The notes: generated by a model from the letters alone, not told the origin. A DNA stretch of 64,000 bases from Candidatus Thorarchaeota archaeon (GCA_019057475.1 DXJO01000014.1:17011-81010), one strand, 5' to 3'; numbered from the stretch's first letter, positions 8,035 through 34,613 are shown. Numbers and translations: made by a program.

Positions 8035-8047
8035 GCGTCAAGGAGAA

Positions 8048-10844: not shown

Positions 10845-10928
10845 GCTGAAATCTCCCCGATGATTTCACGCGCTCATCTGTTCAGAGGGGTCGTCACCTT
10901 AAGTTCCTTTGCTCCAAGCAATGTGAAA

Positions 10929-11393
10929 TCATGCATTCGTTGACTCCTCCGTCCACCATGACTTTTCCTCGGACATCTCCTCCCATATTTCAGGAGATTC
11001 AGGAGGGGGTCTCAATCTGACAATGAGGATGCTGACTATCAGGAGGATGAGTGAGGGGGCCCCCAATGATACTGGACCATATGGATTCAGAAGCCATATG
11101 ATGATGTATGGTATGAAGAGAAACGCGAAGGGAAGCTCACTCACGATGCCAAGTGTCAATGTGCGCTTCTTGGTTGTCCGCCCCTTGTAGAGTCGGACCA
11201 TCTGATAGGCGTAGGCTAATCGGATGAAACCAAAAGGCATCGACATACCGAGGGTGAAGATATCCACTAGTACCAGTTGTGTGTAGTAGGATGATGACGT
11301 GAAGCTCCAGAGAATTGCAATCAAAGAAAGATACAGTCCATCGTAGCTGGAGAGAAAAAAGGCAATTGGTGCAAGGAGAGCCACAAGAGTCAT
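10929..11393 (-). CDS. Hypothetical membrane protein (tandem paralog B), apparently 5'-truncated
   Basis: Colinear with paralog A (GRTTKKRTLTLGIVSELPF is identical) but homology stops at ~11408; nearest in-frame ATG is 11393. Confidence 0.6.
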   Translation of the reverse strand: MTLVALLAPIAFFLSSYDGLYLSLIAILWSFTSSSYYTQLVLVDIFTLGMSMPFGFIRLAYAYQMVRLYKGRTTKKRTLTLGIVSELPFAFLFIPYIIIWLLNPYGPVSLGAPSLILLIVSILIVRLRPPPESPEIWEEMSEEKSWWTEESTNA

Positions 11394-17853: not shown

Positions 17854-17955
17854 TCACTCCTATGATTTTGGGAATTGAGGAGTAGTTCCCTCGTCTAATA
17901 GGGATTTCCCAAACGATTTATGGCGAGCCCCCCAATGGATTAAGGAGGCTTTTCC

Positions 17956-19347
17956 ATGGTTGAGCTGGATCTCGTTATCAAGAATGGAATAATCGTGACT
18001 GCTTCCGATACATACACAGCAGATGTCGGAGTGCAAAAGGGGAAGATAGTATCTGTGGCGGAGGATTTGACCGCAGGCCCTGAAACACAGATTATTGAAG
18101 CAAAGGGGAAATACGTCTTTCCAGGAGGAATTGATGTTCATGTCCATCTCCAGCTTCCGTTCTCTGGAACCATTTCTGCTGACGATTTCGAGAACGGCAC
18201 CAAGGCTGCCGCATGCGGTGGTGTGACTACTGTAATCGATTTCGCAATTCAGAGTAAAGGCCACTCAATCATGGAGGCAGTTGAGGCTCGACGGGCCGAG
18301 GCGGACCCGAAAGTATGTATCGACTATGGTCTGCATGCCGCCATTACGGACTGGAACGACAAGACTCAGGCTGAGATCAAGCAAGTCATTGACTATGGTA
18401 TCCCCACATTCAAGATGTTCATGATCTACAAGAATGAGGGCTGGATGGCTGATGATGGCATGTTGTTCCGCGCTCTGGAGGAAACTGCAAAGCTCGGCGG
18501 ACATATCGGAGTCCACGCAGAGAGTGCGTTCGTCTTGGAGATGTTGATTGACAGGTACGCAAAGGAGAAAGAGAAATGGGGTGCATATGGACATACACTG
18601 TCTCGCCCCGCTTTCACTGAGGAAGAAGCAATCATTCGTGCAATCAAATGGGCTGAGGTCACAGGCGGACAGTTATACATAGTTCATATGTCCACCGGCG
18701 GTGGCGCTGACGCGGTTCATGCTGCGAAGGAGCGCGGTGTGAGAGTATACGCAGAAACTTGCCCTCAGTATCTTCTGCTTGATGACGAGGTCTTCAAGGG
18801 TAAGAATGGGCATCTGTATGCCACCTGTCCACAGGTCAAGAAGCCTCACGATAATGAGCGTCTGTGGAAAGGATTGCTGAATGGCGATGTGCAGGTAGTG
18901 GCGACAGATACGTGCACCTTCACATCTGAGCAGAAGGCCGCATGGAATGGCGATTTTAGAAAGATTCCATTCGGAATGCCTGGCGTTGAAACCATGGTGC
19001 CCCTGATGTACACAGAGGGAGTCCGCAAACGAGGATTTACGGTGAACCAGCTGGTGGCCCTCATCAGCACGAATCCTGCGAAGCTATTCGGCATGCACCC
19101 TGACAAGGGGACCATTGCTGTTGGCAGTGACGCAGATTTGGTCGTCTTCGATCCTGAGAAGAAGGTGACACTTCGAGCCGCTGACCTGCAGACTAACTGT
19201 GATTGGAGCCCATTCGAAGGGTGGAAGCTCGTTGGGTACCCTTCGATAACCATATCTAGGGGTGCAGTGGTTGCACAAGAAGGCAAGTTCGTTGGAGAGG
19301 TGGGCCACGGCAAGTTCTTACAACGAAGACCCTTTGGGAAGCTCTAG
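17956..19347 (+). CDS. hydA: Dihydropyrimidinase
   Basis: PGGIDVHVH, GGVTT, FKMFM, HAE, VHMS and ETCPQYL. Confidence 0.93.
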   Translation: MVELDLVIKNGIIVTASDTYTADVGVQKGKIVSVAEDLTAGPETQIIEAKGKYVFPGGIDVHVHLQLPFSGTISADDFENGTKAAACGGVTTVIDFAIQSKGHSIMEAVEARRAEADPKVCIDYGLHAAITDWNDKTQAEIKQVIDYGIPTFKMFMIYKNEGWMADDGMLFRALEETAKLGGHIGVHAESAFVLEMLIDRYAKEKEKWGAYGHTLSRPAFTEEEAIIRAIKWAEVTGGQLYIVHMSTGGGADAVHAAKERGVRVYAETCPQYLLLDDEVFKGKNGHLYATCPQVKKPHDNERLWKGLLNGDVQVVATDTCTFTSEQKAAWNGDFRKIPFGMPGVETMVPLMYTEGVRKRGFTVNQLVALISTNPAKLFGMHPDKGTIAVGSDADLVVFDPEKKVTLRAADLQTNCDWSPFEGWKLVGYPSITISRGAVVAQEGKFVGEVGHGKFLQRRPFGKL

Positions 19348-19375
19348 GACCTGAATAAGAAGGAGTGTTGGTTTC

Positions 19376-20065
19376 ATGGATGCAGAAAGGCTGGAATTTG
19401 GAGTTGGGCAAGACAAATCGGAGGATGGGACACTTGCGAATCTGTGGAAGTATTTCGTACACGGGCTTGTATTCGCACTAATTATGTTGGGATTCCCGTT
19501 CTTCATGGATGTGGTCTTACTGGAGGCAATTTATGGGGGCTCATTGAGTGCTGCACTCGGAGGGCTGGTTCTTGTCTTTATCATGCTACTGTTTGGTGTT
19601 GGCTTCTTCAATAGCTACCTTGCACGCTACCTATGGGACCTCAACCCCAAAAGGACTCTAGCAAGCTGGTTGGGGCAGGGCATCTTGGTCCTCTTAATGC
19701 TACCACTATTCGGTTTCATCTACTACATGATAATCATGCTTCTGTGGGGATTTGCATCACCTCCAGCAATACTGTCAGCGGTCGTTCTCTTCTTTCTGGA
19801 TGCAATCGCAAGTGGCTACATTGGCAGGCATGTTGCTGCAGAGTTTGAGGAACAACGAGAGGGAGTGGAGGAACTAGCATCAGTTGCGGATCGCCACATA
19901 CCGTGTCCTCACTGTGGTTCTCTCTTCATGTGCAAAAGCTCTATGATTGGTCCTAATGGAGAGGCGATCTGTCCACATTGTCGAGAAGCAGTGATTGTGC
20001 CAATCGAAGGCCCTCGGCCAGAGTATTCGGGTTGGGAACGGAAACCTGAGCGTAGCGAATGGTGA
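19376..20065 (+). CDS. Membrane protein with a C-terminal zinc ribbon
   Basis: 4 TM helices then CPHC...CPHC. Confidence 0.75.
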   Translation: MDAERLEFGVGQDKSEDGTLANLWKYFVHGLVFALIMLGFPFFMDVVLLEAIYGGSLSAALGGLVLVFIMLLFGVGFFNSYLARYLWDLNPKRTLASWLGQGILVLLMLPLFGFIYYMIIMLLWGFASPPAILSAVVLFFLDAIASGYIGRHVAAEFEEQREGVEELASVADRHIPCPHCGSLFMCKSSMIGPNGEAICPHCREAVIVPIEGPRPEYSGWERKPERSEW

Positions 20066-20302
20066 GCATGCCCGTGTGCCTAAGAATACAATCCTCAGCT
20101 CGGCCTCGTGGAAAAAGCCTGTATATGGACCAAGTCGATGAATGAATACCCACATTCATTGGTGTTTTATGTCCCCAAAATGCTGCAAAGACATGACAGA
20201 ATCAACTGGTTTCGTGCATCAAGGTAGAATTATTCCACAGGATCCCTCGGCTCCAATCATTTATTAGCATAGAAAATCGGGCAGTGGCTGAGGCTATATG
20301 CT

Positions 20303-20920
20303 GTGACGATAGACGATGGAATCGGTGGAGGACGCCGAAACTTCAAAGTTGTGCAAAAACTGGCTGCATTGCGACCAGTCTACGAAATCTATGACGAACA
20401 AACTGGCGAAAGGATTGCCACCGGACGACGGACGTGGATGAGTTTCCTTAGATCTACCATTCATTTCGAAGATGAACAGGGAAATAGGATACTCACAGCC
20501 AAGGGAGGCTTCTTTGACAAGACTTTCTGGTTGTACGATGAAAGCGGAGGGAAGATCGCGAAGCTCACGCGGCCGTGGATTGCACTCCGCAAGAACTTCA
20601 CAATATACTACCGTGACGACTTCATCAAGGCGCAAGCAGGATTCCTGCCATGGGGATTCGAAGCTCTGAGAAGCGACGGAACGTTTGCATTCAGACTAGA
20701 CAAGAAGATCATCGCGATAAGGGACCAGTCTAGGGTTTCTGTTGGAGACTACATGCCCTGGCTTCACGCCGTTTCATCCGCAGTTGTTGTGGACCAAATC
20801 TTCTTCAAGACTAAAGGCTGTGGTGCGACCCTAATCTGCTGTCTGCTACCCGTCGTGATACTCTTGGGGGCACTCTTCGGGTTGATGATGCTTGCGAGCT
20901 TGCTGGGTCTTGCTCCGTGA
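20303..20920 (+). CDS. LURP-one/scramblase (Tubby-C-like) family protein with a C-terminal TM helix
   Basis: Repeated beta-hairpin pattern (YEIYDEQTG, HFEDEQG, WLYDESG) and KKIIAIRD. Confidence 0.65.
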   Translation: MTIDDGIGGGRRNFKVVQKLAALRPVYEIYDEQTGERIATGRRTWMSFLRSTIHFEDEQGNRILTAKGGFFDKTFWLYDESGGKIAKLTRPWIALRKNFTIYYRDDFIKAQAGFLPWGFEALRSDGTFAFRLDKKIIAIRDQSRVSVGDYMPWLHAVSSAVVVDQIFFKTKGCGATLICCLLPVVILLGALFGLMMLASLLGLAP

Positions 20921-21068
20921 ACCGGGTCATCTTGCTCAGCTTAGTTGCTGAGAATTTGGCATTAGCGAAAACGTGAGCGGGTACTTTGGAAACCAAGTCG
21001 CAATTACCAGCAGCAAATGCGCTGCGACTGCTCCAGATCCTGCCCGCTCCGTTGTTTGTTTTACTACA

Positions 21069-21127
21069 TAGGTGCTGCGCAAGTACTGCTTTTAGTCTAC
21101 ACACATCATGCATTAGTAGTGGAGAGC
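21069..21127 (-). repeat. Degenerate copy of the 23S rRNA 3' end and trailer (R5)
   Basis: 45/59 ungapped identity to 30510-30568. Confidence 0.8.
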
Positions 21128-21174
21128 AGGGCTCTTGACTATTAATAGGAGCAGAGAGCCTAGCCTGTTGAATC

Positions 21175-22137
21175 CTACGCAACAGATGTTGGCAGTTCGA
21201 CCACAACTCGCTCGAGACCCTCACTCTTCATTCTTCTCTCTAAATCCCTGACGTTCCGTCTCATAGCTAGTTCATAGAAGGAGTATACAACCGAAATGGG
21301 ACCCATTGCCAAGAGTGGTGCGATAAAGATGACTACAACTGGGAGAAGAAAGAACCAAAGAGGAACTTCAATGGTACCAGGCAATGACGTGAACCATTCA
21401 TAAGTCTGAAGGGCAATGAGGAAGTAGGTTGCGATAGTCGAAATCCCTGCAAACCCCTTGAGCAGCGCAAGGTAGTAGTTTCCGACTCCCTCTATGTCCG
21501 CCGTGGATCGTGTGCCCTCTATTTTCCGTTCATAGATAATCCCAGTGTCTTCGAGAAGCCAGGCTGGAGCAAAGAAGATGACAATGAAGCTAGAAATCAG
21601 AAGTAGAAGGAAGAAGAGGGGCATAGTTTCTGCAATGCCGCGAGCCGATGGTGCAAGGGTGTCAAAACTCTCCGTCACGAATAGGAGGTCAGCAATGCTC
21701 GAATTGCTAGCGAGTGTTGATGCAAGTCCCAATGAAACGAAAGCAGGGATGATAAGCCTCCTGATGTAACTCGCGTGGCCAGCCCTTGGATCCAACGCCT
21801 GTATGTGATAGTTGCAGTTTCTGCCTGTGATAAGACGGTGCATTTTCCATTGGAGAAGCGACAGATGTCGCGAGGTCAGGTATACAACTATGCCTATGGC
21901 CACTGAGATGACGTAGAGCCATACGAAGTCGATTAGTATGTCTCCCGGCAGGAGTCGATAGAGCCCAAGAGGACTAGTGAACGGAAAAATTTCAGCATAA
22001 CTGAACACTACCGTGAGGGCCATACTAACAATGGCGACGATGTGCAAAGGCACCACGAATCTCCAGGGGATTGATGGGGCCAGCGCGTCATTATCCTTCA
22101 AACCAGAGTGTAGTACGTCCGTATCGTGCTCTGACAT
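21175..22137 (-). CDS. Hypothetical multi-TM membrane protein
   Basis: 320-aa ORF with about 6 TM helices and a GAGG SD. Confidence 0.75.
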   Translation of the reverse strand: MSEHDTDVLHSGLKDNDALAPSIPWRFVVPLHIVAIVSMALTVVFSYAEIFPFTSPLGLYRLLPGDILIDFVWLYVISVAIGIVVYLTSRHLSLLQWKMHRLITGRNCNYHIQALDPRAGHASYIRRLIIPAFVSLGLASTLASNSSIADLLFVTESFDTLAPSARGIAETMPLFFLLLLISSFIVIFFAPAWLLEDTGIIYERKIEGTRSTADIEGVGNYYLALLKGFAGISTIATYFLIALQTYEWFTSLPGTIEVPLWFFLLPVVVIFIAPLLAMGPISVVYSFYELAMRRNVRDLERRMKSEGLERVVVELPTSVA

Positions 22138-22215
22138 TGACTCAACCTCTTCAGATAGACAACTGACTTTCTGAGATAGTGGTCATTATCGCACCGGCTT
22201 TTAGCAGTATTTCGT

Positions 22216-22268
22216 AGGTTCGTAACTTCTTTCTCTTGACAACTTTGGGTGTTGTGTGAATATCGCTT
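22216..22268 (-). repeat. Degenerate copy of the 23S trailer (R4)
   Basis: 22235-22268 matches 30499-30532 at 27/34; 22216-22227 aggttcgtaact is identical to 28485-28496 at the same spacing. Confidence 0.75.
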
Positions 22269-22346
22269 GGGAGCTGTAGATATGGAGTATCCTTGATTCC
22301 ATTAGATTACTCCCGCCTGACCTGTATCAAGCATGCGGGAGAGCCG

Positions 22347-23615
22347 TTAATCAGCTATCCTCTTCATGGCCATCTCACGCAGATCGTCAGGAATCTCAAA
22401 CTTGAATGGCAAATCCGGAAACGCCTCCAAAGAATCTATGACGAGGCACGAAAGTCTGCCAACTTCACCCAAGTCCCTGGGTCGAAGAAGAGAGGGAATA
22501 TCTATGGTGCTGTGACTGACATTTCCACTGGTGGTGCCATGGCTTGCCATATGGATGGTTGGGATGCCATTTGCGGCGAAAACCTTGTTGTCCCCACCCG
22601 ACGTTGCGACACGTCTACACCTAGCGGGATATGCGCCAGTCTTGGCAGTGGAGTCCAGCCAGCTAATCATCTTATCAGTGCCTGCAGCGAGCAGGAGTAA
22701 AACACCAGGGAGTGCGCCGATGCTGTCAATATTAATGCAGAGAGAGATTAAGTCTAGACTGTGAGATGCTACAAACTCCTTTGATCCCAGCATGCCCAGT
22801 TCCTCCCCACCGAATGATACGAAGTGATATGTGAACTTAGGCTGAGTCTTTGAGATTGCCCGAGCTATCTCAAGCATTATTGCCACACCTGCTGCGTTGT
22901 CGGTAGCACCAGGGGCAAAAGTGCAGGTGTCATGGTGCGCACAAATCAGAACCGTTTCTTCTCGTTGTCCGGACACACTTGCGGAAACATTCCGAAGTAG
23001 ACCCGCCTTAGATTTGCCGTGCACTATCAGTCGCAACTTAGACCCAAATATCCGGTCATGTATCTTGGCCATATCAGCTGCAGAAACAACCATTGACGGA
23101 GCTGTAGAGAATAGTTCTCCGAGACCGGTGTAATCGTATGACCTGGGTGCCAGATTCCTATTTAGGTCCATGAACACGACTGCCGCGGGATGCTTCGAAT
23201 ACAAGGACGCCCATGCTTCATAGATGTCATCACTGTGCTGGTCAATCATCAGAACACATGCAATACGTCCCTTAACGCGGGCTGCAGGAACATCATCTAT
23301 CAGTTCGTGTGAGCCAATATAGATAGTTTCTGCAGTGAGACCTTGCGCTGGAGTTTCTGCACTCATCCAACATGGTACACCATTGAGTGAAATCCCTGTT
23401 GTGGGGTCTTGTATCATGGCTAGCTTTGCATCGTAGTACTTGTGTGGAAACTCATAACAGATCACGTCGGTCAGTCCATATTCTTTGAATTGACGCTCGA
23501 TTAGTTTGACTGCAGCTTCTTCAGACTTGGAACCGGAAACCCTTGGACCTAGGTCACACAGCCGTTTCATGTTTTCATAAACTCGCGCTTCCTCGAACTC
23601 AAGCATTCCCATCAC
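22347..23615 (-). CDS. M28-family aminopeptidase with a PA domain
   Basis: AHHD, GATDNAAG, GEELG, NID and H motifs. Confidence 0.9.
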   Translation of the reverse strand: MMGMLEFEEARVYENMKRLCDLGPRVSGSKSEEAAVKLIERQFKEYGLTDVICYEFPHKYYDAKLAMIQDPTTGISLNGVPCWMSAETPAQGLTAETIYIGSHELIDDVPAARVKGRIACVLMIDQHSDDIYEAWASLYSKHPAAVVFMDLNRNLAPRSYDYTGLGELFSTAPSMVVSAADMAKIHDRIFGSKLRLIVHGKSKAGLLRNVSASVSGQREETVLICAHHDTCTFAPGATDNAAGVAIMLEIARAISKTQPKFTYHFVSFGGEELGMLGSKEFVASHSLDLISLCINIDSIGALPGVLLLLAAGTDKMISWLDSTAKTGAYPARCRRVATSGGDNKVFAANGIPTIHMASHGTTSGNVSHSTIDIPSLLRPRDLGEVGRLSCLVIDSLEAFPDLPFKFEIPDDLREMAMKRIAD

Positions 23616-23859
23616 TCACCTTCGTCTATGGGGGTTCGCTAGCGATTGCAAATCAACACCTCACATAAGGCCTTTCCCAGATACGCAAAGCAGGGCACAT
23701 CAAACAGTCAACAAGCGATGGTTGAAAGGATTGGGTTTCAGATTAATTTAACAACACAACAATGGTGACAAGACACCCAGTTGCATGCCCTGACAGGATT
23801 CCGATGCGAGGGGTTAATAGCACACGGGACAATAGCCGTGAGTTGGAGGTTTTTGCCAA

Positions 23860-24342
23860 ATGGAGTTCATAACAGGACACTTGTATACTGTTTCACAAGC
23901 AGATACTTCAAACCCCATGTTCTGGCTGGCCGTCTTCTTTGTCACTGGTCTGGCGGCGATGATTATAATAGCCCTTGCAGTAGGCATTGTTGTCAGCTTG
24001 AAGTATAGGGCAATCCGCAAAAAAGCTGAACAAGCGGGCGTACAAGTGGATTTGAGCTCGGACAGCACAAGAATTACTGCCCAAGGCATTGAGGGTTGTG
24101 GGTATTGTATCGTCTGCACCATTGTCCTGATTCTAGGAGCGTTAGGCATCACGCTTCCAATTGTGTTGACTCAGCAAGCAGAGGATCTAATCCTCGCCAT
24201 TGTCATGGTTGTTATGGGAGCACTCTGTTGGGGAGCAGCTATTGCTGCGATTCCTTATTCGATTCGCGACCTTAAGAAGAAATATCGCGCACTAGACGAT
24301 GCCCTAGCTGCCAAAGCCGGCAAAGAATCAGAAGCGATGTGA
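23860..24342 (+). CDS. Hypothetical 3-TM membrane protein
   Basis: GGAGG SD and three hydrophobic helices. Confidence 0.65.
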   Translation: MEFITGHLYTVSQADTSNPMFWLAVFFVTGLAAMIIIALAVGIVVSLKYRAIRKKAEQAGVQVDLSSDSTRITAQGIEGCGYCIVCTIVLILGALGITLPIVLTQQAEDLILAIVMVVMGALCWGAAIAAIPYSIRDLKKKYRALDDALAAKAGKESEAM

Positions 24343-24349
24343 TTGTGAA

Positions 24350-24466
24350 GGTTTCGCAACTCCGGGACCTTGACAACTCTAGGTACTGTGCGAAAACCGC
24401 TTTTAATCTGCACGCCTCGGACATTGGTAGCGGTGAGCTGAACACCTCGCCGAATCTTGGCGCTCA
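24350..24466 (-). repeat. Near-perfect copy of the 23S rRNA 3' end and trailer (R3)
   Basis: 24367-24460 matches 30497-30590 at 91/94 (95/100 to 24466); offset 6130 bp. Confidence 0.97.
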
Positions 24467-24825
24467 TTTTCCTGTTGTTTCGGTCCAATCCGCAGCAATA
24501 AACCTCATGATGCAGTTTCTATAGACTCCCACCGAGAGGAAGCTGAAGTTTCAATCTTCCTGATAGTAGCAACCAATCCCTCACGATAAGATGAATACTT
24601 CGACTGCAAGGACCCGGAAAGGTGACTCATCTTGTCACAGTCCGTACTTGTCACTTTGGAGGTTACATCCATCACTTCAAGTACAACTAACGAGATCAAT
24701 ATTGTTGGAATGACACGGCTTGAAACCCGAAGATATGAGGTTTCTCGAGAATTCAATCCTGGAAAAACAGCTAGAAACAGAGATCATAGGATTCCTCCAG
24801 TGTCGTTTCTGGAGTGACAAAGGAT

Positions 24826-26712
24826 TCATGTCTGGCTCTGACCAAGCTGCGATGAACGGTAGAAATACAGGATGCAGTATAGGCTAGCAGCTAGAACATT
24901 GACTAGAATGAACGCAACGGGATCCCTAGCGAAATGAACGCCATTCATCAAGGCATGCATGACTAGTAATATCAATGTAGGAAAGACAACATGTTTGTGT
25001 ATCTTGCGAAGAATCTTCTTCCGTTTGACTCGCTTGGATGCAAGTCCGAAACCTGAGAGAGAGGTAATGAAAACGAGTGGTATGCTCAGATATGCCAAAA
25101 ATTTGCCAAGGTCATAGGATGTCATCGGGGCAGAGAGAATCCCTGAGATGAAGTGAGATAGGGCACTGCAATAGGAACTGATGTTGAAAAAGCCCCAAAG
25201 ATCACGAACGTGACCATGAATAATCATACTGTGGATAACCAGTCCCACCAGAGGTATGACCCCAAGAAAGCAATGTAACCAACGAGCTCTTTTTTGAATT
25301 CGTTGCCTAATCGTGGGAACTGAAAGATACAGACTGCAATAGAATGCTACGAGAGCCAGAACGCCGCTGGCGCGGGCTATATCAGTCATATGAAGCTGAT
25401 AAGCATCCGTTTCGTCTAGGAACCCAGATGTCAGACCTATGGGCATGATATAGATGGGCTTGAGAGTACCAGGAATCTCTACTACCTGAGATACCGCATC
25501 CTCGTAGAAAGCACCTATCACTACTGTTCCTAGGCCTTGACCAGCGCATTTCAGATAGACATTCTGAGCAATCATGCCTACATTGAACATCATAACTCGA
25601 TGATGAAAGCTAGGATTCGGTTGTTGATCTACCCAAGTGATGTTCACTGACATAACAACATCCAGTTGAGCGTTCTCAATCCAATGCTGATCCAGACCAG
25701 CAATCCTCAAAGAGGGTCGCAAATCTCCTAGTGATATCTGCTCTAGTGAACCGTTCTCCTGAGCATACAAGTACGACCCAGTTGCTAGACCCTCTACTTC
25801 ACCAGCCACTAGACGAATGTCAAGCTGCGACTCGTTTCCAACTAGATGAGTTATTGCTGTACTGTCATCCAGTACATCTAAGAGAATGGAGAGAGGAATA
25901 GACCCGCTTTGATAGTCCCTTATGGATTTCCGTTTCGCAATAGCTTGTTCAACAGTAATCTCGTCTGCGTCAGCCAAAGCAAATTGCCCACTTCTTGTTG
26001 AAACGGGAGACTGTACACCGATTCCAAGAGGTAGGATTGCCAAGGGGTCTAGATCCGTATCTAGGAAGCTCTGAACACCGTCGGGTGTGAAGTTGGTTAT
26101 CACTCGTGTACACAAGTCGAGAGAAGTTGCCTGCAACAGGAAGTTCTGAATGGCGTGTCCAACCTCAAGATGTACGTACTGAACTCCCCTGTCACCGTAA
26201 CGCATCGTGGTTCGAGCATAGTCAACCAGAATGAGAAAGGCAGTACTAGCATTCGTCAATGCTTCTCTGTCTTCATCCTCGAATGTTGACAAGAGGTCTG
26301 TCAGATTGCAGGTCGGAGAAGTGAATTCAAGCTGATGCCCTTGAGGGATGTAGTGATAACAGCCCCCACTCAGTGTGGGTGTCCCCTCATGTACAACGAA
26401 AATCTCCAGTGGATATGTTCCACCGGCTGATGGTACAGTCCGAAAACCTGGACCATGCGTGATGCCTTGGAGCGCCCAGAGCAACTGGGATACCTCCGAT
26501 ATTTCAATCTGGTAGTGCCTCAAGTCATCTGCAGGTTTTGTACGCAGAATGGCAGAACTCAATGGCAAGTGACCCTCAAGGTCGGGCGATGGTAAGGGGA
26601 TGTTGTCTGTTTCAGCGTGGACCATCTCGAAGAGCAGAGAAACGAGAGAACCAGCGAGTACTAGCAATAGCAACAATGATAGCCGCTGTGAAATCTTCGG
26701 CCTCTTACTCAT
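24826..26712 (-). CDS. Tandem SagB/ThcOx-type nitroreductase domains fused to a His-rich multi-TM domain
   Basis: LLWALQG, RTVPSAGGTYPLE, EVGHAIQN, RKSIRDY and QNVYL; N-terminal TM or signal; C-terminal TM helices containing His. Confidence 0.85.
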   Translation of the reverse strand: MSKRPKISQRLSLLLLLVLAGSLVSLLFEMVHAETDNIPLPSPDLEGHLPLSSAILRTKPADDLRHYQIEISEVSQLLWALQGITHGPGFRTVPSAGGTYPLEIFVVHEGTPTLSGGCYHYIPQGHQLEFTSPTCNLTDLLSTFEDEDREALTNASTAFLILVDYARTTMRYGDRGVQYVHLEVGHAIQNFLLQATSLDLCTRVITNFTPDGVQSFLDTDLDPLAILPLGIGVQSPVSTRSGQFALADADEITVEQAIAKRKSIRDYQSGSIPLSILLDVLDDSTAITHLVGNESQLDIRLVAGEVEGLATGSYLYAQENGSLEQISLGDLRPSLRIAGLDQHWIENAQLDVVMSVNITWVDQQPNPSFHHRVMMFNVGMIAQNVYLKCAGQGLGTVVIGAFYEDAVSQVVEIPGTLKPIYIMPIGLTSGFLDETDAYQLHMTDIARASGVLALVAFYCSLYLSVPTIRQRIQKRARWLHCFLGVIPLVGLVIHSMIIHGHVRDLWGFFNISSYCSALSHFISGILSAPMTSYDLGKFLAYLSIPLVFITSLSGFGLASKRVKRKKILRKIHKHVVFPTLILLVMHALMNGVHFARDPVAFILVNVLAASLYCILYFYRSSQLGQSQT

Positions 26713-26769
26713 ACTACTGTACAACCGGGGAACGCTCTGGACATAAGCAACCGATGCCAAGTAAGTCGA

Positions 26770-26795
26770 AGTGCGCTAATAAATAGTAGCGCACT
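26770..26795. promoter_or_regulatory. Perfect 9-bp inverted repeat upstream of the nitroreductase fusion gene (possible operator)
   Basis: agtgcgcta-N8-tagcgcact flanking an AT-rich, TATA-like spacer. Confidence 0.45.
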
Positions 26796-26895
26796 CTAAA
26801 CAAGGCTGGCAGTTTCAGGTGTCTGTGATCCATGACACAAGGTTGTGCATTGTTGGGACGTGTTCAGAAGCTGCACACACACTGGTCATTTGAAA

Positions 26896-26948
26896 CTCGG
26901 GCACTAGTAGTGGGGAACTGAACACCTCGCCAAGACTCGGTGCCCACA
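26896..26948 (-). repeat. Degenerate copy of the 23S rRNA 3' end (R2)
   Basis: 42/53 ungapped identity to 30546-30598. Confidence 0.85.
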
Positions 26949-27085
26949 TATCGTTACAATTGGAAGTGCATTGATTGCATATGCGAATACAATTAGTGGG
27001 GACTGCTTTCAGAGGGTTATGCTTCGTCTTTCGCGAAAGTAGCCCCTCATTACTTATAGCGTCAATTGTTATTCCTAAACCAAGG

Positions 27086-27802
27086 ATGCCTTTGAGAATC
27101 ACGAAGAGAACTCGTGCGGGTGCAATCCTTGCCCTAGTCTTGCTCCTGATCATCGGTCTTGCAAGCTACTCATTGAGGGACGAGGACTACCCTTCGGGAA
27201 CTCTGCCACTAAACGCTACGCCTCAGTTTGATGTAGGAGAAGAGTTCTGTTATAAGACAGATAGCTACTTGCTCAGCAACGTAGAGGCTATCTATGAATG
27301 GCGCGAAGAAGTCTTCACAGTCAACAGAACGATGCAGATTGACGAAAGGGAATACTATGAGATTGTGTATGATTTGATAATTCATGTATGGGAGTCTGAC
27401 GCCATACCCGAAACGGTGATCAATATCACGCACCTTCTGTACATTGACGTAGAGAATGGGACATGTGTTGGAAAGACCGTGGACCCATCGAGATACTCAA
27501 ATGAGGATGGCCTTGCAACAGACATAGGCTTCTTCGCATATTGGATGTTGGGACTCGAAGAGGGACTCAGATGGCAAATGATCGATGAGGCTTCTTCGAA
27601 AGTCCACAGGATTGATGTGCTTGGAATGGATGAGGTAGATGAAGTGCAGTGCTTCAAAGTTAGAGTGAAGGAGATACTGCATGGTCGAGTCAACCGAGTC
27701 CGTCAGTTCTGGATAGCTGCTGACAAGAGAATCGTAATAAAAGAAGAAACAGATTTCCCCTCGGGGGAAACCGTTTATAGGGATGCGGCATCATGTCCGT
27801 GA
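27086..27802 (+). CDS. Hypothetical secreted or membrane-anchored beta-rich protein
   Basis: Basic N-terminus plus hydrophobic helix, then an acidic beta-strand-rich body. Confidence 0.7.
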   Translation: MPLRITKRTRAGAILALVLLLIIGLASYSLRDEDYPSGTLPLNATPQFDVGEEFCYKTDSYLLSNVEAIYEWREEVFTVNRTMQIDEREYYEIVYDLIIHVWESDAIPETVINITHLLYIDVENGTCVGKTVDPSRYSNEDGLATDIGFFAYWMLGLEEGLRWQMIDEASSKVHRIDVLGMDEVDEVQCFKVRVKEILHGRVNRVRQFWIAADKRIVIKEETDFPSGETVYRDAASCP

Positions 27803-27840
27803 GTCAGAATAGTAGGACTCCTAAAGAATCATCCCGCTAG

Positions 27841-28371
27841 ATGGAGCGCATACTCTTGCCGTTTACGCCATTTCACTTGGGACCTGCATTGCTTCTCGGG
27901 CTGCTACTCCTCCGCTACATCGATTTTCCCACATTTGTAGTGGCAAACGTTATCGTCGACATTGAGTCATTCTTGGTTCTGGCGCTTGGCCTGAACTATC
28001 CGCTCCACGGTTTCCTTCATACGTTCCTGGGAGGGTCCATCATTGCTCTTCTCCTAGCAATGGTGATGAACGAGGTAAGAGAACCGCTCTCTCCACTGTT
28101 GTCATCATTCAGACTTGAACAGGAAACCTCGTTCAAGGGTGTGTTGCTTGCCTCTGTCTTCGGTGTCTACCTTCACATCCTGTTGGATGCACCTCTCTAT
28201 ATTGACATTCAGCCGTTCTATCCGTTAGACACCAATCCATTCTATGTTGGTAGTGCGTCGTTTGGAGCAGCAGTCTACGGTCTATGCACTTGGTGCTTCT
28301 TGGGGGCGGCTGTAATCTATGCGATCCGGTTGATTATGGTCTGGAGAATGGGTACGAAGATCTCCAGTTGA
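27841..28371 (+). CDS. Membrane-bound metal-dependent hydrolase (YdjM/DUF4184-like)
   Basis: PFTPFHLG, D.E, HGFLHT and HILLD motifs. Confidence 0.8.
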   Translation: MERILLPFTPFHLGPALLLGLLLLRYIDFPTFVVANVIVDIESFLVLALGLNYPLHGFLHTFLGGSIIALLLAMVMNEVREPLSPLLSSFRLEQETSFKGVLLASVFGVYLHILLDAPLYIDIQPFYPLDTNPFYVGSASFGAAVYGLCTWCFLGAAVIYAIRLIMVWRMGTKISS

Positions 28372-28484
28372 GAAACATCAGAGTAGTCCAACAAGTACAT
28401 TGATTCATCACGGAAGATTCCAATCGCGACACTCGGTAGGTTGAGATTCACCAAGAAAAGCTAAAGTTGACCCACAAAGGATAG

Positions 28485-28532
28485 AGGTTCGTAACTCTTT
28501 GCCCTTGGCAACTCTGGGTACTGCGCGAAACC
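28485..28532 (-). repeat. Copy of the 23S trailer, BHB 3' strand (R1)
   Basis: 28503-28530 matches 30498-30525 at 25/28. Confidence 0.85.
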
Positions 28533-28542
28533 AACCATATCC

Positions 28543-28785
28543 TCATGGACCAGCAGATTCGCTCGACTGTATTTGCCACCAAGTCCACAGCGAGTAGATG
28601 GTAAGCGCAGCACCAAGAGGGATGAGCAGTAACCATATAGTTCCAGCAATGGGTGGTATGTGATAGGGATATCCCTGTGGATCAAGCGGGGGCTGGGGAT
28701 GTGTCACAATCCAAATGGTGATTGAGTTGAGAATGTATCCAGTCAGCATGAGAATAAGCCCAACGACGAGATGCTTCTTGCGCAT
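28543..28785 (-). CDS. Small 2-TM membrane protein
   Basis: MRKKHLVVGLILML..., GAGG SD. Confidence 0.6.
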   Translation of the reverse strand: MRKKHLVVGLILMLTGYILNSITIWIVTHPQPPLDPQGYPYHIPPIAGTIWLLLIPLGAALTIYSLWTWWQIQSSESAGP

Positions 28786-28904
28786 GCTGAATCCCTCACA
28801 TTGTCGTACACTACTGCACGCAAATAGACTTGAATCTAGCTCTAGAACTGGATTTGTTAATATGCAATAAGTACCTATTATTGACCTATCCAGTAGTGAG
28901 AGAA

Positions 28905-29513
28905 ATGGCTGATGACTTAGTCTACAGGGCGCTCTTTGTTGGGACATATGCGCTATTCCTTGGAGTACGCGGATACTATAGGTTTGTGAAACTAAGAAAA
29001 GACCAGAGAAACCAGGAAGAGCCTGAAGCAGAACGAAAGAGTTTTGGAAGAGCAGAGTCAGCCATTGTCATCTTCATTCTTGGTTACCTTGTTTCCACCA
29101 TTCTGTATCTCATAGGCAGCCCTTGGATTGATTGGTCCCAGATTCCCAGCTATCCTATCTGGTTACGCTTGCTTGGAATCCTTCTAGCCCTGACCATGAT
29201 TCCTCTTCTTGCCTGGATTCACCGAACACTAGACAGGCAATACTCGCCCTGTCTGCAGATTAAGAGTGGTCATCAGTTGATAAGGACAGGTCCTTATGCA
29301 AGGATACGTCATCCGATGTACACAGTACTCAATTTCTTCTCGGTGGGGCTTGCTCTTCTGACTGGGAATCTGCTAGTTGTTACTTTCTCACTGATGCTGA
29401 TGTTCTCGTTCCCATGGGTGGCTAAGAAAGAGGAACAGATGATGATTGAAACATTCGGTGATGAGTATCGGGAGTACATGACAAGGACAGGTCGATTCTT
29501 CCCGAAGATTTGA
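28905..29513 (+). CDS. Isoprenylcysteine carboxylmethyltransferase (Ste14/ICMT) family protein
   Basis: HQLIRTGPYARIRHPMY, EE..M...FGDEYREYM..TGRFFP. Confidence 0.9.
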   Translation: MADDLVYRALFVGTYALFLGVRGYYRFVKLRKDQRNQEEPEAERKSFGRAESAIVIFILGYLVSTILYLIGSPWIDWSQIPSYPIWLRLLGILLALTMIPLLAWIHRTLDRQYSPCLQIKSGHQLIRTGPYARIRHPMYTVLNFFSVGLALLTGNLLVVTFSLMLMFSFPWVAKKEEQMMIETFGDEYREYMTRTGRFFPKI

Positions 29514-29624
29514 CTCACCGCATCCGAAATCTGCACATCATCAGGATGAGGACGACCATAGTGATATCGATGAATCACAATCGATAAATCCAGATGGTTT
29601 TCGCAGTAGAACGAGGAATGGATA

Positions 29625-30356
29625 ATGGACTTCTCCAACGTTTACAAGGACGATAAGCGTGCGGATGCATATTCAAAACTCCAATTCCCTGGAACCTACT
29701 ATCTGGCATTCAGAGACCTCCCTGCAATCATATCTGAACATGTTACCGGTAAGGAAGCATTGGACTTTGGGTGTGGTTCAGGGCGTTCTACTAGATTCCT
29801 GCAGAAACTTGGCTTTCGTGTGAGTGGCGTTGACATATCGGAGGCGATGACAAGGAAAGCCAGAGATATCGATCCTAAAGGCAACTACTACGTCATAGAG
29901 GAGGGCGACTTCAGTCAGTTCAAGGAAGGTTCATTCGATCTCATCCTGTCCGCATTCCCCTTCGACAACATCCCTACCATGGAGAAGAAGGTCATGAATC
30001 TCAGAGGTCTGAGAAATTTGCTTAGTAACGAGGGGCGACTGGTCAATCTGGTGTCGACACCTGAGATTTACACACACGAATGGACATCATTTTCCACAAA
30101 GGACTTCCCGGAGAACAAAGACGCAAGAAGCGGTGACACCGTTCTAATAATCCAGATGGACACCGAAAACAAGGAACCTGTAGAGGACATCCTCTGGACT
30201 CATGAGTCATATCTGGAAACCTACGATAGGGCTCAACTGGAGATTGTTAGTGCCTATCATCCGCTGGCAAAGGACGATGAGCCATACGAATGGGTCAATG
30301 AAACTGAGATTCCACCTTGGGTTGTATATGTGTTGAAGAGAAGTGGTCATCTCTAA
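29625..30356 (+). CDS. Class I SAM-dependent methyltransferase
   Basis: ALDFGCGSGRS, GVDIS, FDLILS. Confidence 0.9.
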   Translation: MDFSNVYKDDKRADAYSKLQFPGTYYLAFRDLPAIISEHVTGKEALDFGCGSGRSTRFLQKLGFRVSGVDISEAMTRKARDIDPKGNYYVIEEGDFSQFKEGSFDLILSAFPFDNIPTMEKKVMNLRGLRNLLSNEGRLVNLVSTPEIYTHEWTSFSTKDFPENKDARSGDTVLIIQMDTENKEPVEDILWTHESYLETYDRAQLEIVSAYHPLAKDDEPYEWVNETEIPPWVVYVLKRSGHL

Positions 30357-30493
30357 ATCAATTTGTAGCTGATTTCGATATCGTAATAGCTGCGGATCAT
30401 CTTCTTGGCAAGTTAACGTACGCCTAGGCCATGCCTTTTCTAGCGAATATAAAAAAGATCGCTTGCAGAGGATGGAGGCATAGTTTGTACATT

Positions 30494-30532
30494 CTTACCT
30501 TGACAACTCTAGGTACTGTGCGAAAACCGCTT
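30494..30532 (-). promoter_or_regulatory. 3' strand of the pre-23S bulge-helix-bulge processing stem
   Basis: GUUGUCAAGGUAAG pairs with the leader at 34108-34121; AGA bulge at 30508-30510; ACCU/GGGU central 4-bp helix. Confidence 0.9.
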
Positions 30533-30719
30533 TTAGTCTGCACGCCTCGGACATTAGTAGCGGTGAGCTGAACACCTCGCCGAAGCTTGGTGCTTACACC
30601 CCCGCCCTATTTACCTTGTCTTCTACAAGAGTCCTCGTTCCTAAACTCAACGTTACTGTCACCAGTCCCGCTGCCCCTCGGAGGGGTCGTTTAGTAAATG
30701 GGTGACTATTTTTCGGTCT

Positions 30720-30752
<33 letters not shown>

Positions 30753-30835
30753 ATTACGGCTTAGCTACTCGACATTGCCTTGTCAGACAATCGATACACC
30801 ATAGGCCGCCACGAAGCGTTCCTCTCGTACCGGCT

Positions 30836-30865
30836 TTCCACGCGCTAGAGGAGATCTCTAGCACC
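30836..30865 (-). other. 30-nt insertion in H95, putative BHB micro-intron
   Basis: 9-bp hairpin between GAG and AAA bulges; removing it restores the 8-bp CAUGAAGC/GCUUCGUG stem. Confidence 0.7.
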
Positions 30866-30935
30866 TCATGTTGCCGGCAGTCACCCAACAGCGCCAATAG
30901 ATAGAAACCAACCTGTCTCGCAACGGTCTAAACCC

Positions 30936-31364
30936 CTTTGCTACCGACCTCGTTTCGGTCATTTCCTGCCGAAACTTTAACGGTCCTCTTGGACTTCACC
31001 CGGCTTCCGGATCATGGTTAGGAAGCCAGTTTTCCATTCAAGAACATCCTTTCAGATGGGAATAGACTATGTCTTGAGCGCTGCATTTCTGCAACGCCTG
31101 CTGCCATTTAGTCGTTGAACTGCACCCTTATTCCAAGAAGGAACTTAGGACTTGGCTGCAGGTTGTCCATTGTTACATCCTCCCCATTGTTACCATACCC
31201 GAGGCCACTAACCTGGCCGACATGATGTTTCCATCGTGCCTTGGTAGGGGAGGCTTTAGGAGTTTCCCGCAATTTGACAGCATCGCCAGCAACCACTCTG
31301 ACTAGCCGAACCTTTCGGTCCGACTGAGCCTATAGCCGCGCAACCGCTTATGCGCGACCGGTCA
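30936..31364 (-). ncRNA. Group I intron (IC1-like, no ORF) after 23S U2580
   Basis: The exons rejoin as GAGCU|GGGUUUAG and the intron ends in G; IGS GGCUCA pairs with UGAGCU; P AAAUUGCGGGAA, Q CCUGCAGCCAAG, R GUUCAACGACUAAA, S AAGACAUAGUC; P3 UGCUGUCA/UGGCAGCA. Confidence 0.95.
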
Positions 31365-34083
31365 AGCTCACGTTCGGTTTTAATCGGTGAGCACCCGCAC
31401 CCTTCGGGCCTTATGCAACCCGAGGATACCAAGAGCCGACATCGAGGAAGCAAGCCGCGTGGTCGATATGAACTCTTGCACGCGACAACTCTGTTACCCC
31501 TGGGGTAAGTTTTTTGTCATCTCCACCACTCACAATTGGCCAGTGAAGGTTCGCTAGGCCAGTGTTTCCACCCAGGACCCGTTGCTTTTCGGGGTCCTGT
31601 CAGCCGAACTTATGCCCTTGATCTCAACGAGACGTTTCCATCGCCTCTGAGTTCAGCATTGGTCAGGGCTGATCTCTTGTCAGCCCTGTGCCGCCCCAGC
31701 CCAACTGCCTATCTGCCAGTGTCCCTAGACTCGCTTGGTCTAGGTTAGCCATCCCCAACAACATAGTCAGTATTACACGGTCGCATTCCCACACCCCGGA
31801 GAGTGTGGTTCAACGCTCCTGACTATACTCTGTATGATGCCAGAAATGGCAATGACAGACTGCGTAGTAAACCTCCGCAGGGACTTCTCTTCCCATTGGC
31901 GCTACGTACACTGTTCGGTACGGTGTAGGTTCACCGGAGCCCTCCTGGGGACAGTGGGGACCTCATTGCTCCCTTCATGCACGTCGGCATTTAACCGACA
32001 AGGCATTTGGCTACCTTAAGAGACTCATAGTTAGTCCCGGCGTTAACCTGTGCTTCGACCCGTTCCCGAGCTTTAACATACAGGCACAGACCAGGATTCA
32101 CTGACTGTACTAACGCTTACGCGCTCGCAGTCAGCTATGTTTGTATTAAACAGTTGGGACCCCCTAGTTGCTAAGACCTAGGAAAGCTTGCACTAACCCA
32201 GGCACGGCATATCCCGAAGTTACGCCGCTAATTGGCCGATTTCCCTCAGGCAGGGTTGACTCCGATACACCTTGGCCTTCTCAGCCAGGGAACCTGTGTC
32301 AGATCTGGGTACGGACACGGAAGATCCTTCCAAATTCGTTTTTCAAGGTCACCAGGAATAGGCCAAACGGATGTCCGACCACCCGCTATTCCACCCTTCG
32401 CCTGCTTCTCACAATTACGGTACTCGGCAGGCTTATAGTGTTAAATACAGCGACAGCTGTACTTGGCTTGTCCGAATGAGTTACAAATTTGGCTTTGCGT
32501 TGCCGCGAATCGTACTTCCGTGGTTCAGGAATATTAACCTGATTCCCTTTCGTGACGCTCGAATTACGACGCCACTTAGGATCGACTAAGCTTCGGCTGA
32601 TGACGCATCGCCGAAGAACCCTTTCCCTTTCGGTGACATGGATTCTCACCATGCTTCGCTGTTACTACTACCAGGATCATCAAACCCGACCGGTCCACGG
32701 GACCTCACAGCCCCACTTCTACCCAATCGGGTCGCTCCGCTACCGGATCACACAGAATTACCCGTGTGCCGTATGGTCTCGGTGGCCAGATTTAGCCCCG
32801 TCCATTTTCAAGGCCGAGAGCCTCGGTCTGTGAGCTGTTACGCTTTCGTTCGGGGATAGCTGCCTCTAAGCTCACCCCCAGACTGTCTTGGGCTCTCGAC
32901 TCCCTTCTTCACCGCACTTATCTGGCACTTAGGGACCTTAACCACACTCTCGGTTCTCCCCATCTCGGCCTGCCGGGCTTACCCCGGGCACCCGTCTCCC
33001 GCCGTCTACAGTTCATGCAGCTTCGGAGTTTTCAGGATGGTGAAGGACTTGACGTCCCCCGGGCGCATCCGAAAGTGCTCTACACCACATGATACCTCAA
33101 GCAGGGCTTGGCTACGACCAACTTCGCGGAGAACGAGCAATCACCAGTCTAGATAAGCCTTTTACCCCTTCGCGCAGATCAACGGAACGAGTTGCACGTC
33201 AGAACCCTATCGGGCCTCCACCGAGCTTTCGCCCGGCTTCACCCTGTCCACGCCAAGATCGACTGGTTTCTCGTGTCACGGGAGTGACTTCGCGCGCTTT
33301 CACACGCCGCCCCTCACCCTTGCGGGTTGCGGGCTTATTGGTTTCCCTTCGTTTACGGCTTAATGCCTTATCCTCGCCACGCCCATGAACTCCCTGGTCC
33401 GTGTTTCTAGACGGATGATGCTGAGTCGATCCACTCGAGTCCTACTACAGAATCACTTCTGGTTCGTTCCCCGAGTATCTACTCTTTTACTCAGCATCCT
33501 TTGTGTAGATTGCTGGTTTCAGGTGCTTTTCACCCCGCTCCCGCGGCACTTTTCAACTTTCGCTCGCGCTACATAGTTTACTATCGGTTTGGCTGAGTAT
33601 TTAGGCTTCGCAAATTGTGCTTGCGACGTTCACGCGAGAGTTCCAACCCGCGCTACTCTGGAACCATGAACTTGCCTGCGTGTTACGCCTACGGGGGTGT
33701 CACCCTCTACGCCGCATCGTTCCAGACGACTTCGGCTTTCACGCATAGGCAATAAGTTCTTGGCCCGTACACCACATCCCCCAGTACTCTTCGCACTGAG
33801 ATTCGGTTTGGCCTTTTCCCCTTTCGCTCGCTGTTACTCAGGGAATCACTGTTGTTTTCTTTTCCTGCCCGTACTAAGATGCTTCAGTTCCGAGCGTTCC
33901 CAATCCGGGAATGACCCCGGATCCATGCGGATTATTAGCCCACATGAGGAAGTCCCATTAGGAAATCTGCGGATCAAAGGCTTCGTGCGCCTACCCGCAG
34001 CATATCGCTGCTTGCCACGTCCTTCATCGGCTAGCCAACCAAGTCATCCACCAGCAACCGTTTAGCGAATCGCGGACCTACTT

Positions 34084-34121
34084 ACGATTTCGGCAACAGT
34101 ATTACCCGTTGCCAAGGTAAG
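34084..34121 (-). promoter_or_regulatory. 5' strand of the pre-23S BHB processing stem
   Basis: CUUACCUUGGCAAC-GGGU-AAU(bulge)-ACUGU is complementary to 30494-30519. Confidence 0.9.
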
Positions 34122-34613
34122 TAAATTTCTAGTCATTTCATGTACGATATTAATTTTCGTCAACCACATATTGATATGATCGATGAACCTATACCTCCAT
34201 CCTCTGCAATCCTTGCACACTGCTTCTTCCATAAACGATGGTGGAGTACGACTCCAAAGCACATGCATCGACGGTCCTCCATCGGAAATGGCACCAATCT
34301 CATCGCCTGGTCCCGATGAACTTTCATCCGAGCACGACCCCGGATTCTGGACCTGCTTCATGCGCACTACTATGTCGTGTGTGCGCTCGACGAGCCACCT
34401 TGACTCGTGATTTAAAGCTTGCTGTGCATCGAGATGCAAATATGCACTCGCAGTTGCCAGAACAGCCCTACAACGTTCACGTTGCATAAGACCGTCTCTA
34501 CTCGACGACAGCACGATAATTCAGTTGCATTGGTAATAAACGTTACGTCTTGACTCAGTTAGAGGTCATCACAAGCAGGTGCTCTGCATCTGTGGAGTCA
34601 GGTCGAAACCTGA

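Follow-up and report, generated by a model that had tools for sequence, protein, structure and literature searches.

The window analysed here is a stretch of 64,000 nucleotides (nt) from a Candidatus Thorarchaeota genome (contig C46 of assembly G000, positions 17011–81010). The source is a metagenome-assembled genome (MAG) of this Asgard archaeon, 96% complete, with 3.34 Mb in 56 contigs. The window contains the only 23S ribosomal RNA (rRNA) gene of G000, located on the minus strand and followed by an array of protein-coding cassettes that is punctuated by partial copies of the gene's own tail. The locus is confirmed as a real cassette array of this kind, hypervariable between near relatives. 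The 23S gene and its tail are made up of the following features:

30535–34073, minus strand: 23S rRNA gene, head of the array (Rfam LSU_rRNA_archaea, 2388 bits)
31043–31373: group I intron inside the 23S gene (Rfam match)
30447–30640, minus strand: working 3' end of the 23S with its trailer, from which the repeats derive (profile positions 1–194)
30498–30513: bulge-helix-bulge (BHB) core strand of the working trailer, sequence CCTAGAGTTGTCAAGG
30465–30483: distal stem strand of the working trailer
within 30451–30466: T-stretch of the working trailer
34096–34121 and 34189–34207 (span 34096–34207), minus strand: 23S leader strands that pair with the trailer (cofold)

When the 23S trailer is cofolded with the leader, a long processing stem with bulges is formed, of which the trailer is the 3' strand.

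Copies of the rRNA tails

Copies were searched for with blastn (word size 7, query 30400–30700) in the window and in the whole genome, and with a profile built from copies found in the family. Within 9.5 kb downstream of the gene, five partial copies (R1 to R5) of its 3' end, the trailer or both are found, all co-oriented and intergenic, together with a vestigial sixth:

28461–28530, minus strand: R1, trailer-only copy (profile 116–189); blastn 28475–28530, 46/62 with gaps, E 0.007; profile E 6e-7
26896–26949, minus strand: R2, terminal part of the 23S only (profile 42–95); blastn 26896–26948, 42/53, E 7e-6; profile E 2e-10
24347–24472, minus strand: R3, youngest-looking copy; blastn 24367–24464, 94/98 (96%) identical to the working end, genome-wide E 3e-31
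23708–23741, minus strand: sixth, vestigial trailer copy that has lost about 57 nt from its interior (alignment)
22218–22268, minus strand: R4, decayed trailer-only copy; 39/51, E 0.003
21063–21168, minus strand: R5, distal-most copy (profile 31–138), end of the array; blastn 21069–21127, 45/59, E 7e-6; profile E 8e-17

The initial annotation of this stretch, made from the sequence alone, had listed R1 to R5, and the genome-wide blastn search recovered all five where they had been placed, in the orientation of the gene and between genes. Two finer points made there also hold: R2 and R3 share a near-identical start, about 60–64 nt inside the 23S, and R1, R3 and R4 span the BHB, all three covering the core at 30498–30513. 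The identity of R3 to the working end stops just past this core, and behind the 23S piece of R2 the trailer part is a decayed trace at best. R4 is a match of blastn only, the profile being of no help, but its ortholog is present in the congener G001. R5 is orthologous to positions 6877–6981 of the corresponding G001 locus (L022), and the vestigial copy is the ortholog of an intact copy at 4232–4314 of the same locus.

Only one other significant match was found in the 3.34 Mb, at positions 7958–8073 of the 9.6 kb contig C20 (E 3e-14). The positional bias is therefore extreme, and neither the chance matches nor the genome-wide scatter against which the initial annotation had cautioned were encountered. 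Misassembly, a further concern raised there, is contradicted by the divergence of the copies and by orthologs in independent assemblies (G001 and metagenome contigs L100, L103 and L107), so the copies are real and not an assembly artefact. The match on C20 (L086) is an isolated older copy of the 23S end and the start of the trailer. It adjoins genes for a 1150-residue STAND ATPase-TIR protein and an AbiTii-like protein, and with this defence-type cargo it may be an unplaced piece of the array or a strain variant. A weak match on an integrase-bearing contig, C47, was dismissed, being on the wrong strand and at chance level.

Decayed duplicate rRNA operons were ruled out as the source of the copies, as no remnants of other parts of the rRNA bodies or leaders are present in the genome. 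With blastn against the whole genome, the 23S leader and 5' end match only themselves; the 23S body upstream of its last 105 nt or so, together with the leader (window 30640–34300), gives self-matches only at E ≤ 0.01, and so do the 16S leader and body. The introns within the gene are themselves polymorphic in this genus, g1 (window 30835–30865 and 30936–31364): the congener G004 (L041) is without a segment of 30 nt within the gene, contig L104 aligns colinearly with the 23S except for a missing 429-nt group I intron, and L107 appears to miss the intron too.

In the RNA sense, a full copy starts with the last 0–65 nt of the 23S and continues through the trailer as far as the T-stretch. The 23S share is mostly within these limits, reaches about 100 nt in a few copies and exceeds 250 nt in assembly G024. 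Boundary statistics are based on the 65 copies that the examined loci contain in addition to the working ends. Their starts are scattered across the last 65 nt or so of the 23S with a peak exactly at the mature end; their ends peak at the end of the trailer and again at the BHB core, with 12 of the 65 ending at profile positions 130–149. Orientation is fixed: 19 loci contain at least two copies, and their 67 copies, the working ends counted, are all co-oriented. In G017, which has the freshest copies, the trailer part is nearly invariant and the 23S part differs from copy to copy, which identifies the trailer, and not the 23S end, as the repeat unit. The earlier view that the 23S 3' end is the repeated unit and the target is thus modified: copies of the 23S tail do punctuate the array, with the 3' strand of the processing stem as the unit and the 23S end as a variable add-on.

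The trailer-only copy R1 pairs with the leader so well that only 0.8% of random-substitution controls equal it in a duplex test, and its closest working trailer is found in genus g3 (G008, G075 and G073), not in its own genus. Both properties fit a displaced trailer that would once have been functional and may have been imported.

The trailer of the 16S rRNA is multiplied in the same way. At least ten co-oriented copies lie behind the 16S gene (contig C9, continuing on C41), with a further occurrence on C42, and this array is larger than the 23S array in G000. The 16S trailer is also multicopy in other genomes of genus g1 and in G008 and G014. No sequence similarity exists between the 16S and 23S trailers; according to the cofolds, what they have in common is their role as 3' strand of a processing stem. 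The 23S is therefore not special, given that an unrelated trailer heads an even larger array of G000. Polymorphisms form a mosaic pattern among the 16S copies, and the array includes a fossil of the trailer plus the end of its neighbouring gene. The copies, located at C9:15433–29725, C41:19046–25702 (L084 and L085) and C42:290691–290830, are 87–94% identical and 120–200 nt long. The cargo between them includes genes for a TnpB-like protein, a 1693-residue protein, an SDH-type protease, a methyltransferase and an S9 peptidase, as well as VapBC (twice), Fic, GNAT, DinB, RNase H and an alpha/beta hydrolase.

The family-wide search proposed with the initial annotation revealed arrays of the same 23S repeat in at least six of the searched genera of this Thorarchaeota family (G000/G001, G007, G008/G073/G075, G017, G020 and G054), and arrays of partial copies in G024 as well. 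The most extensive is that of G017: between the 23S and the stable part of contig C32, trailer copies number at least 27 within about 60 kb. It is spread over contigs C19, C17, C45, C18 and C32:31823–55087 (L026–L030 and L082), which start and end in repeats; C17 and C45 have the same downstream flank and different upstream cassettes, which hints at strain variation. G024, a 98% complete MAG in which the real 23S was not found with the query used, contains two long copies with more than 250 nt of 23S 3' end plus trailer and no full 23S attached (G024:C3:2199–2428 and 10847–11100, L036), with a repeat-rich paralogous gene family between them. No copies were found in the 9–20 kb examined downstream of the 23S in the family members G015, G019 and G021, nor genome-wide in G036 and G025, which belong to other families and were queried with their own trailers. 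When tRNA 3' ends were surveyed for similar arrays, ARAGORN identified 24 tRNAs only, and the matches obtained resembled unrecognised tRNA genes.

Cassettes and their turnover in the genus

The copies in the window separate six blocks of genes, beyond which a stable flank begins:

29625–30356, plus strand: block 1, class I S-adenosylmethionine-dependent methyltransferase (Pfam)
28830–29513, plus strand: block 1, PEMT/ICMT-type membrane methyltransferase (Pfam)
28543–28947, minus strand: block 1, open reading frame (ORF) of 134 amino acids (aa)
26975–28371, plus strand: cassette 2, 275-aa protein without known family and YdjM-like 176-aa membrane protein
24826–26760, minus strand: cassette 3, fusion of a tandem nitroreductase with a membrane domain, 644 aa
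24505–24756, minus strand: cassette 3, 83-aa ORF (whole cassette 24505–26760)
23860–24342, plus strand: cassette 4, 160-aa membrane protein, common to G001, L103 and L107
22347–23615, minus strand: cassette 5, M28 peptidase of 422 aa, bounded by the vestigial copy and R4; missing in L103 and L107
21175–22137, minus strand: cassette 6, 320-aa protein without Pfam family, between R4 and R5
17956–20920, plus strand: stable flank beyond the array with amidohydrolase (463 aa), 229-aa ORF and 205-aa ORF, syntenic in G001, G006, L103 and L107

At least six arrangements of these cassettes occur among seven assemblies of genus g1. G001 is syntenic with window positions 17906–24337, with 82–98% amino-acid identity from 17956 to 24342 and about 92% nucleotide identity in the flanks; between its 23S and its R3 ortholog it contains three different genes and two other copies, the break being located exactly at R3. 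In G006, the 23S is followed by the methyltransferase and then directly by the stable flank. Contig L103 reads 23S, 160-aa gene, copy, 320-aa gene, R5 and flank; L107 reads 23S, PEMT and 134-aa genes, copy, a G001-type gene, copy, 160-aa gene, 320-aa gene and R5; L104 reads 23S, 134-aa gene, a short core copy and nitroreductase. L105 is like G001, and L106 and L100 are like G000. Block 1 (28543–30356) is present or absent piecewise in G006, L104, L106 and L107. The order of the cassettes is nevertheless identical in all variants of the genus. Conserved gene content downstream of the 23S, which according to the initial annotation would speak against a capture system, is not what these assemblies contain, as the region is hypervariable between close relatives.

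Several junctions fall at the repeats. In place of the M28 cassette, L103 has a hybrid copy, the 5' half of which resembles the copy upstream of that cassette (intact in G001) and the 3' half R4, as expected of recombination between the flanking repeats, or of the empty site of a Campbell-type insertion. When L104 and G000 are compared, the segment from R1 through its cassette to R2 has either been gained by G000 or lost by L104, with the break inside the trailer core. The orthologs of R3 in G001 and L107 are only about 80% identical or less to the working end, far more diverged than R3 itself, and the downstream flank of R3 is still orthologous to theirs; R3 has probably been refreshed by gene conversion from the working copy, judging from these alignments.

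The cassettes between the copies are unrelated to one another and are not duplicates. They are 0.7–4 kb in size, have genes on both strands and in several cases contain two to six genes. A fixed rule of gene followed by repeat was dropped, as a co-oriented gene precedes no more than about half of the repeats. Compositional foreignness was also ruled out, the GC fraction of the cassettes (0.447–0.495) being inside the range of the genome (mean 0.483). Families that recur in the arrays of relatives and in the 16S array are HEPN/MNT, VapBC, Fic, GNAT, DinB, ABC transporters, leucine-rich repeat proteins and peptidases, a cargo typical of hotspots. Genera g3 and g11 have homologs of the nitroreductase inside their 23S-trailer arrays, placed elsewhere, with other neighbours and in either orientation. 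Searches of 60 other family genomes did not reveal the 275-aa gene; its homologs, with 62–64% identity, occur in other metagenome contigs outside any detectable array, still paired with the YdjM gene. The pair is kept together in metagenome contigs (loci L096–L101) down to about 41% identity and in unrelated neighbourhoods, and its products are probably a two-gene functional unit. A module of three genes (ABC ATPase of about 305 aa and proteins of about 265 and 165 aa) is present as a cassette five times in 23S arrays of three genera (loci L023, L027, L030 and L037, in G020, G017 and G007), with 25–50% identity.

Probable recombination at the trailer copies

The initial annotation had noted that the window is without an integrase, and this holds for the whole of contig C46. 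PF00589 has no match on the array contigs C46, C9 and C41, no recombinase is among the 25 most frequent Pfam families of 101 array ORFs, and on the leader side of the 23S ordinary genes are located (NTase, WD40, M28 and others), with no integrase or recombinase. A search for orphan recombinases, suggested earlier, gave a divided result: G000 has eight tyrosine recombinase genes, all on other contigs, whereas no genome-wide match to the Phage_integrase, Resolvase or archaeal (SSV-type) integrase families (PF00589, PF00239 and PF16795) is detectable in G001 or in G017, the latter 98% complete and with at least 27 copies. TnpB genes number 7–14 per genome and are linked to the 16S in one case each in G000 and G008; TnpB-driven homing at the 23S was ruled out, as no 23S-array contig carries a TnpB gene. 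The 16S-linked TnpB-like genes are in the array region, 7–12 kb downstream of the 16S, in these two genera (G000:C9:22325–22528 and G008:C2:135832–136035). When both DNA strands of the 23S and 16S repeats were folded, z-scores against shuffled sequences were between -0.54 and +0.93. Sites like the attC of integrons are ruled out by these values, and the repeat pairs with the distant leader instead.

With a probability of about 0.55, the locus is a hypervariable accessory-gene array that has been built and eroded by Campbell-type recombination at the trailer copies, probably carried out by the host. DNA would enter and leave through recombination between trailer-bearing DNA and a resident trailer copy, either in a Campbell-type single crossover of a circle or in a double crossover or gene conversion, with the rRNA 3' end and a trailer copy serving as portable homology arms. 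An insertion beside the gene would supply a working trailer, as it must, because the processing stem and the terminator are needed. The old trailer would be displaced outward as a direct repeat and would decay afterwards, while a deletion would merge two copies into one hybrid. Only the 3' side would be used because the end of a gene can be rebuilt without a promoter, and the same process would operate at the 16S trailer. The agent would be host homologous or short-homology recombination and not a dedicated integrase, which is favoured by the two unrelated sites, the varying starts of the repeats, a conversion tract extending over the whole homology and the presence of arrays in genomes with no detectable recombinase. 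In this reading, the direction of change (gain versus loss), the circular or linear intermediates and the enzyme are inferred. What stands of the gene-capture system first proposed is the cassette array, its hypervariability and the hybrid repeat at one boundary, but not capture as an active system. Of the two agents named with it, a recombinase or homology-anchored uptake, host recombination is favoured over a single site-specific integrase, a dedicated trans-acting enzyme being the less probable agent.

Several observations weigh against this reading. Differential deletion from one old array could explain most of the differences without ongoing capture, and is made plausible by the conserved cassette order among all variants of the genus. 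The nitroreductase homologs in other genera are 51–53% identical, about as diverged as core proteins, which fits old vertical inheritance. Some breakpoints are located away from repeats (the junction in G006 and the block of the two methyltransferases in L104). At the crossover of the L103 hybrid, the two parent copies have no more than about 8–10 identical bases in common, a short tract for recombination of the RadA type. Three crossover or similarity breaks fall at the same 12-nt core (GAGTTGTCAAGG), a pattern that a site-specific enzyme would also give; given this and the few bases shared in L103, such an enzyme may be involved. The reading does not account for how a new cassette first comes by its trailer copy, no circle and no empty-site read was seen, and the absence of recombinases is weak evidence, since MAGs can miss mobile-element genes.

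A trans-acting site-specific recombinase that reads the trailer core, with one enzyme per trailer type or one that recognises structure, would make the array integron-like, the working trailer corresponding to attI and the copies to attC. The three independent breaks at the 12-nt core would follow from it, as would the 12 of 65 copies that end at profile 130–149 and the near-invariant trailer next to a variable 23S part in G017. Chromosomal integrons resemble the array in their single-gene cassettes of about 1 kb, strict co-orientation of repeats and toxin-antitoxin, GNAT and DinB cargo, and archaeal integrons are mostly integrase-free arrays, enriched in Asgard archaea (Ghaly et al. 2022, PMC9668308). 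We nevertheless consider this explanation doubtful: no tyrosine or serine recombinase is located inside or beside any array, and none at all in G017 and G001; the 16S and 23S trailers are unrelated in sequence; the repeats do not fold into attC-like hairpins; and cassette genes have either orientation relative to the repeat. Crossovers driven by homology would cluster at the core too, because it is the most conserved stretch.

If instead viruses, plasmids or islands had used the rRNA tail as attB and had since lost integrase and backbone, the copies would be scars of integrative elements. At tRNA and tmRNA genes, such elements characteristically leave direct partial duplications of the 3' end, and duplications of this kind are present here; the eight tyrosine recombinase genes on other contigs of G000 and the defence genes beside the 23S-end copy on C20 would also agree. 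This origin is very unlikely, given that none of more than 60 cassettes contains an integrase, that units of 0.7–4 kb with housekeeping-like or toxin-antitoxin cargo show no mobile-element backbone among the 25 most frequent families, and that boundaries differ per copy instead of forming a few att classes. Viral contigs in IMG/VR likewise gave zero matches to a 25-mer of the 23S end or a 23-mer of the G017-type trailer. Scarcely more probable is a passive by-product, in which breaks at the end of highly transcribed rRNA genes are repaired by tandem duplication and deletion, or copies are kept as terminators or RNA-processing elements. Such an origin would account for the involvement of both rRNA genes on their 3' sides only, the T-stretch that ends each full copy, the GC content of the cassettes and the 16S-array fossil with the end of a neighbouring gene. 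It is at odds with the mutually unrelated cassettes, with a 275-aa gene that was not detected in 60 other family genomes yet has homologs of 62–64% identity outside any detected array, and with the same nitroreductase gene in arrays of three genera with differing neighbours and orientation. The orientation of the repeats is fixed relative to the rRNA gene and random relative to neighbouring genes, so that a role as per-gene terminator is unlikely, and G015, G019 and G021 are without copies in the regions examined.

An extension of the preferred reading, host recombination at the trailers, is put forward tentatively: the arrays may be an integron-like exchange platform without an integrase of its own, both rRNA trailers acting as portable attachment sites. 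Cassettes with a trailer copy would move between populations and even genera and be inserted downstream of the rRNA genes, through host recombination or a novel type of recombinase. Prokaryotic pangenomes are shaped by hotspots at which genes are gained and lost, and the known hotspots, integrons and tRNA-linked islands, are based on integrases. In the arrays described here, the rRNA trailer of the host itself is the attachment sequence, at the 16S and the 23S gene alike, with no integrase in sight. If the arrays do exchange cassettes, this would be a simple and possibly enzyme-free way of sharing accessory genes in Asgard archaea, anchored in a sequence that every relative must keep. The archaea most closely related to eukaryotes would then exchange genes horizontally by a route not known so far. 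On the practical side, the repeats break short-read assemblies directly behind the rRNA genes (G017, G004 and others), and this may be one reason why Asgard MAGs so often lack rRNA genes and their surroundings or have them at contig ends.

Comparison with known systems

No description of cassette arrays built on rRNA trailers was found in literature searches. In eukaryotes, the rDNA elements Pokey and R2 (the latter not to be confused with the copy R2) are inserted within the 28S gene and bring along an enzyme of their own. They share with the present array the rRNA locus as a safe, conserved niche for insertion, but the insertions described here are located downstream of the gene, contain cargo of host type and do not code for an enzyme of this kind. 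Homology-facilitated recombination of foreign DNA via a conserved anchor is known in naturally transformable bacteria. It also uses a conserved host sequence as landing pad and needs no dedicated recombinase; in the present case, in contrast, the anchor is duplicated at each event and is portable with the cargo. To our knowledge, DNA uptake or cell-to-cell exchange has not been documented in Thorarchaeota.

Tandem islands are found at tRNA and tmRNA genes, and the tycheposons of Prochlorococcus are tRNA-anchored cargo arrays. As in these, insertion takes place at the 3' end of a stable-RNA gene, the end of which is rebuilt by the incoming DNA, and displaced partial 3' ends remain as direct repeats that decay with distance or age in a hypervariable island; direct repeats that copy the 3' part of the target gene plus its flank, by which tandem islands are recognised, are present here. 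The differences are that the target is an rRNA trailer (16S or 23S) and not the body of a tRNA, that no tyrosine integrase is borne by the island, that the units mostly consist of a single gene and that the boundaries of the repeats vary continuously.

Chromosomal integrons and clusters of attC sites lacking integron integrases (CALINs), including the archaeal ones (PMC9668308), are likewise long arrays of cassettes of one to three genes with co-oriented repeats of 60–190 nt. Their cargo is also rich in toxin-antitoxin, GNAT and DinB genes and genes of unknown function, their content also varies between close relatives (at least six arrangements here), and many of their arrays are without a nearby integrase. 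Unlike the attC site, which is a self-folding hairpin, the repeat described here is a copy of the host's rRNA trailer; the head of the array is an rRNA gene instead of intI, attI and Pc, with no IntI found; genes are in either orientation; and two unrelated repeat families are present in one genome. In the way it works, the array resembles tandem tRNA-linked islands, and in its appearance an integron; with neither an integrase nor an attC fold, it falls outside the definitions of both.

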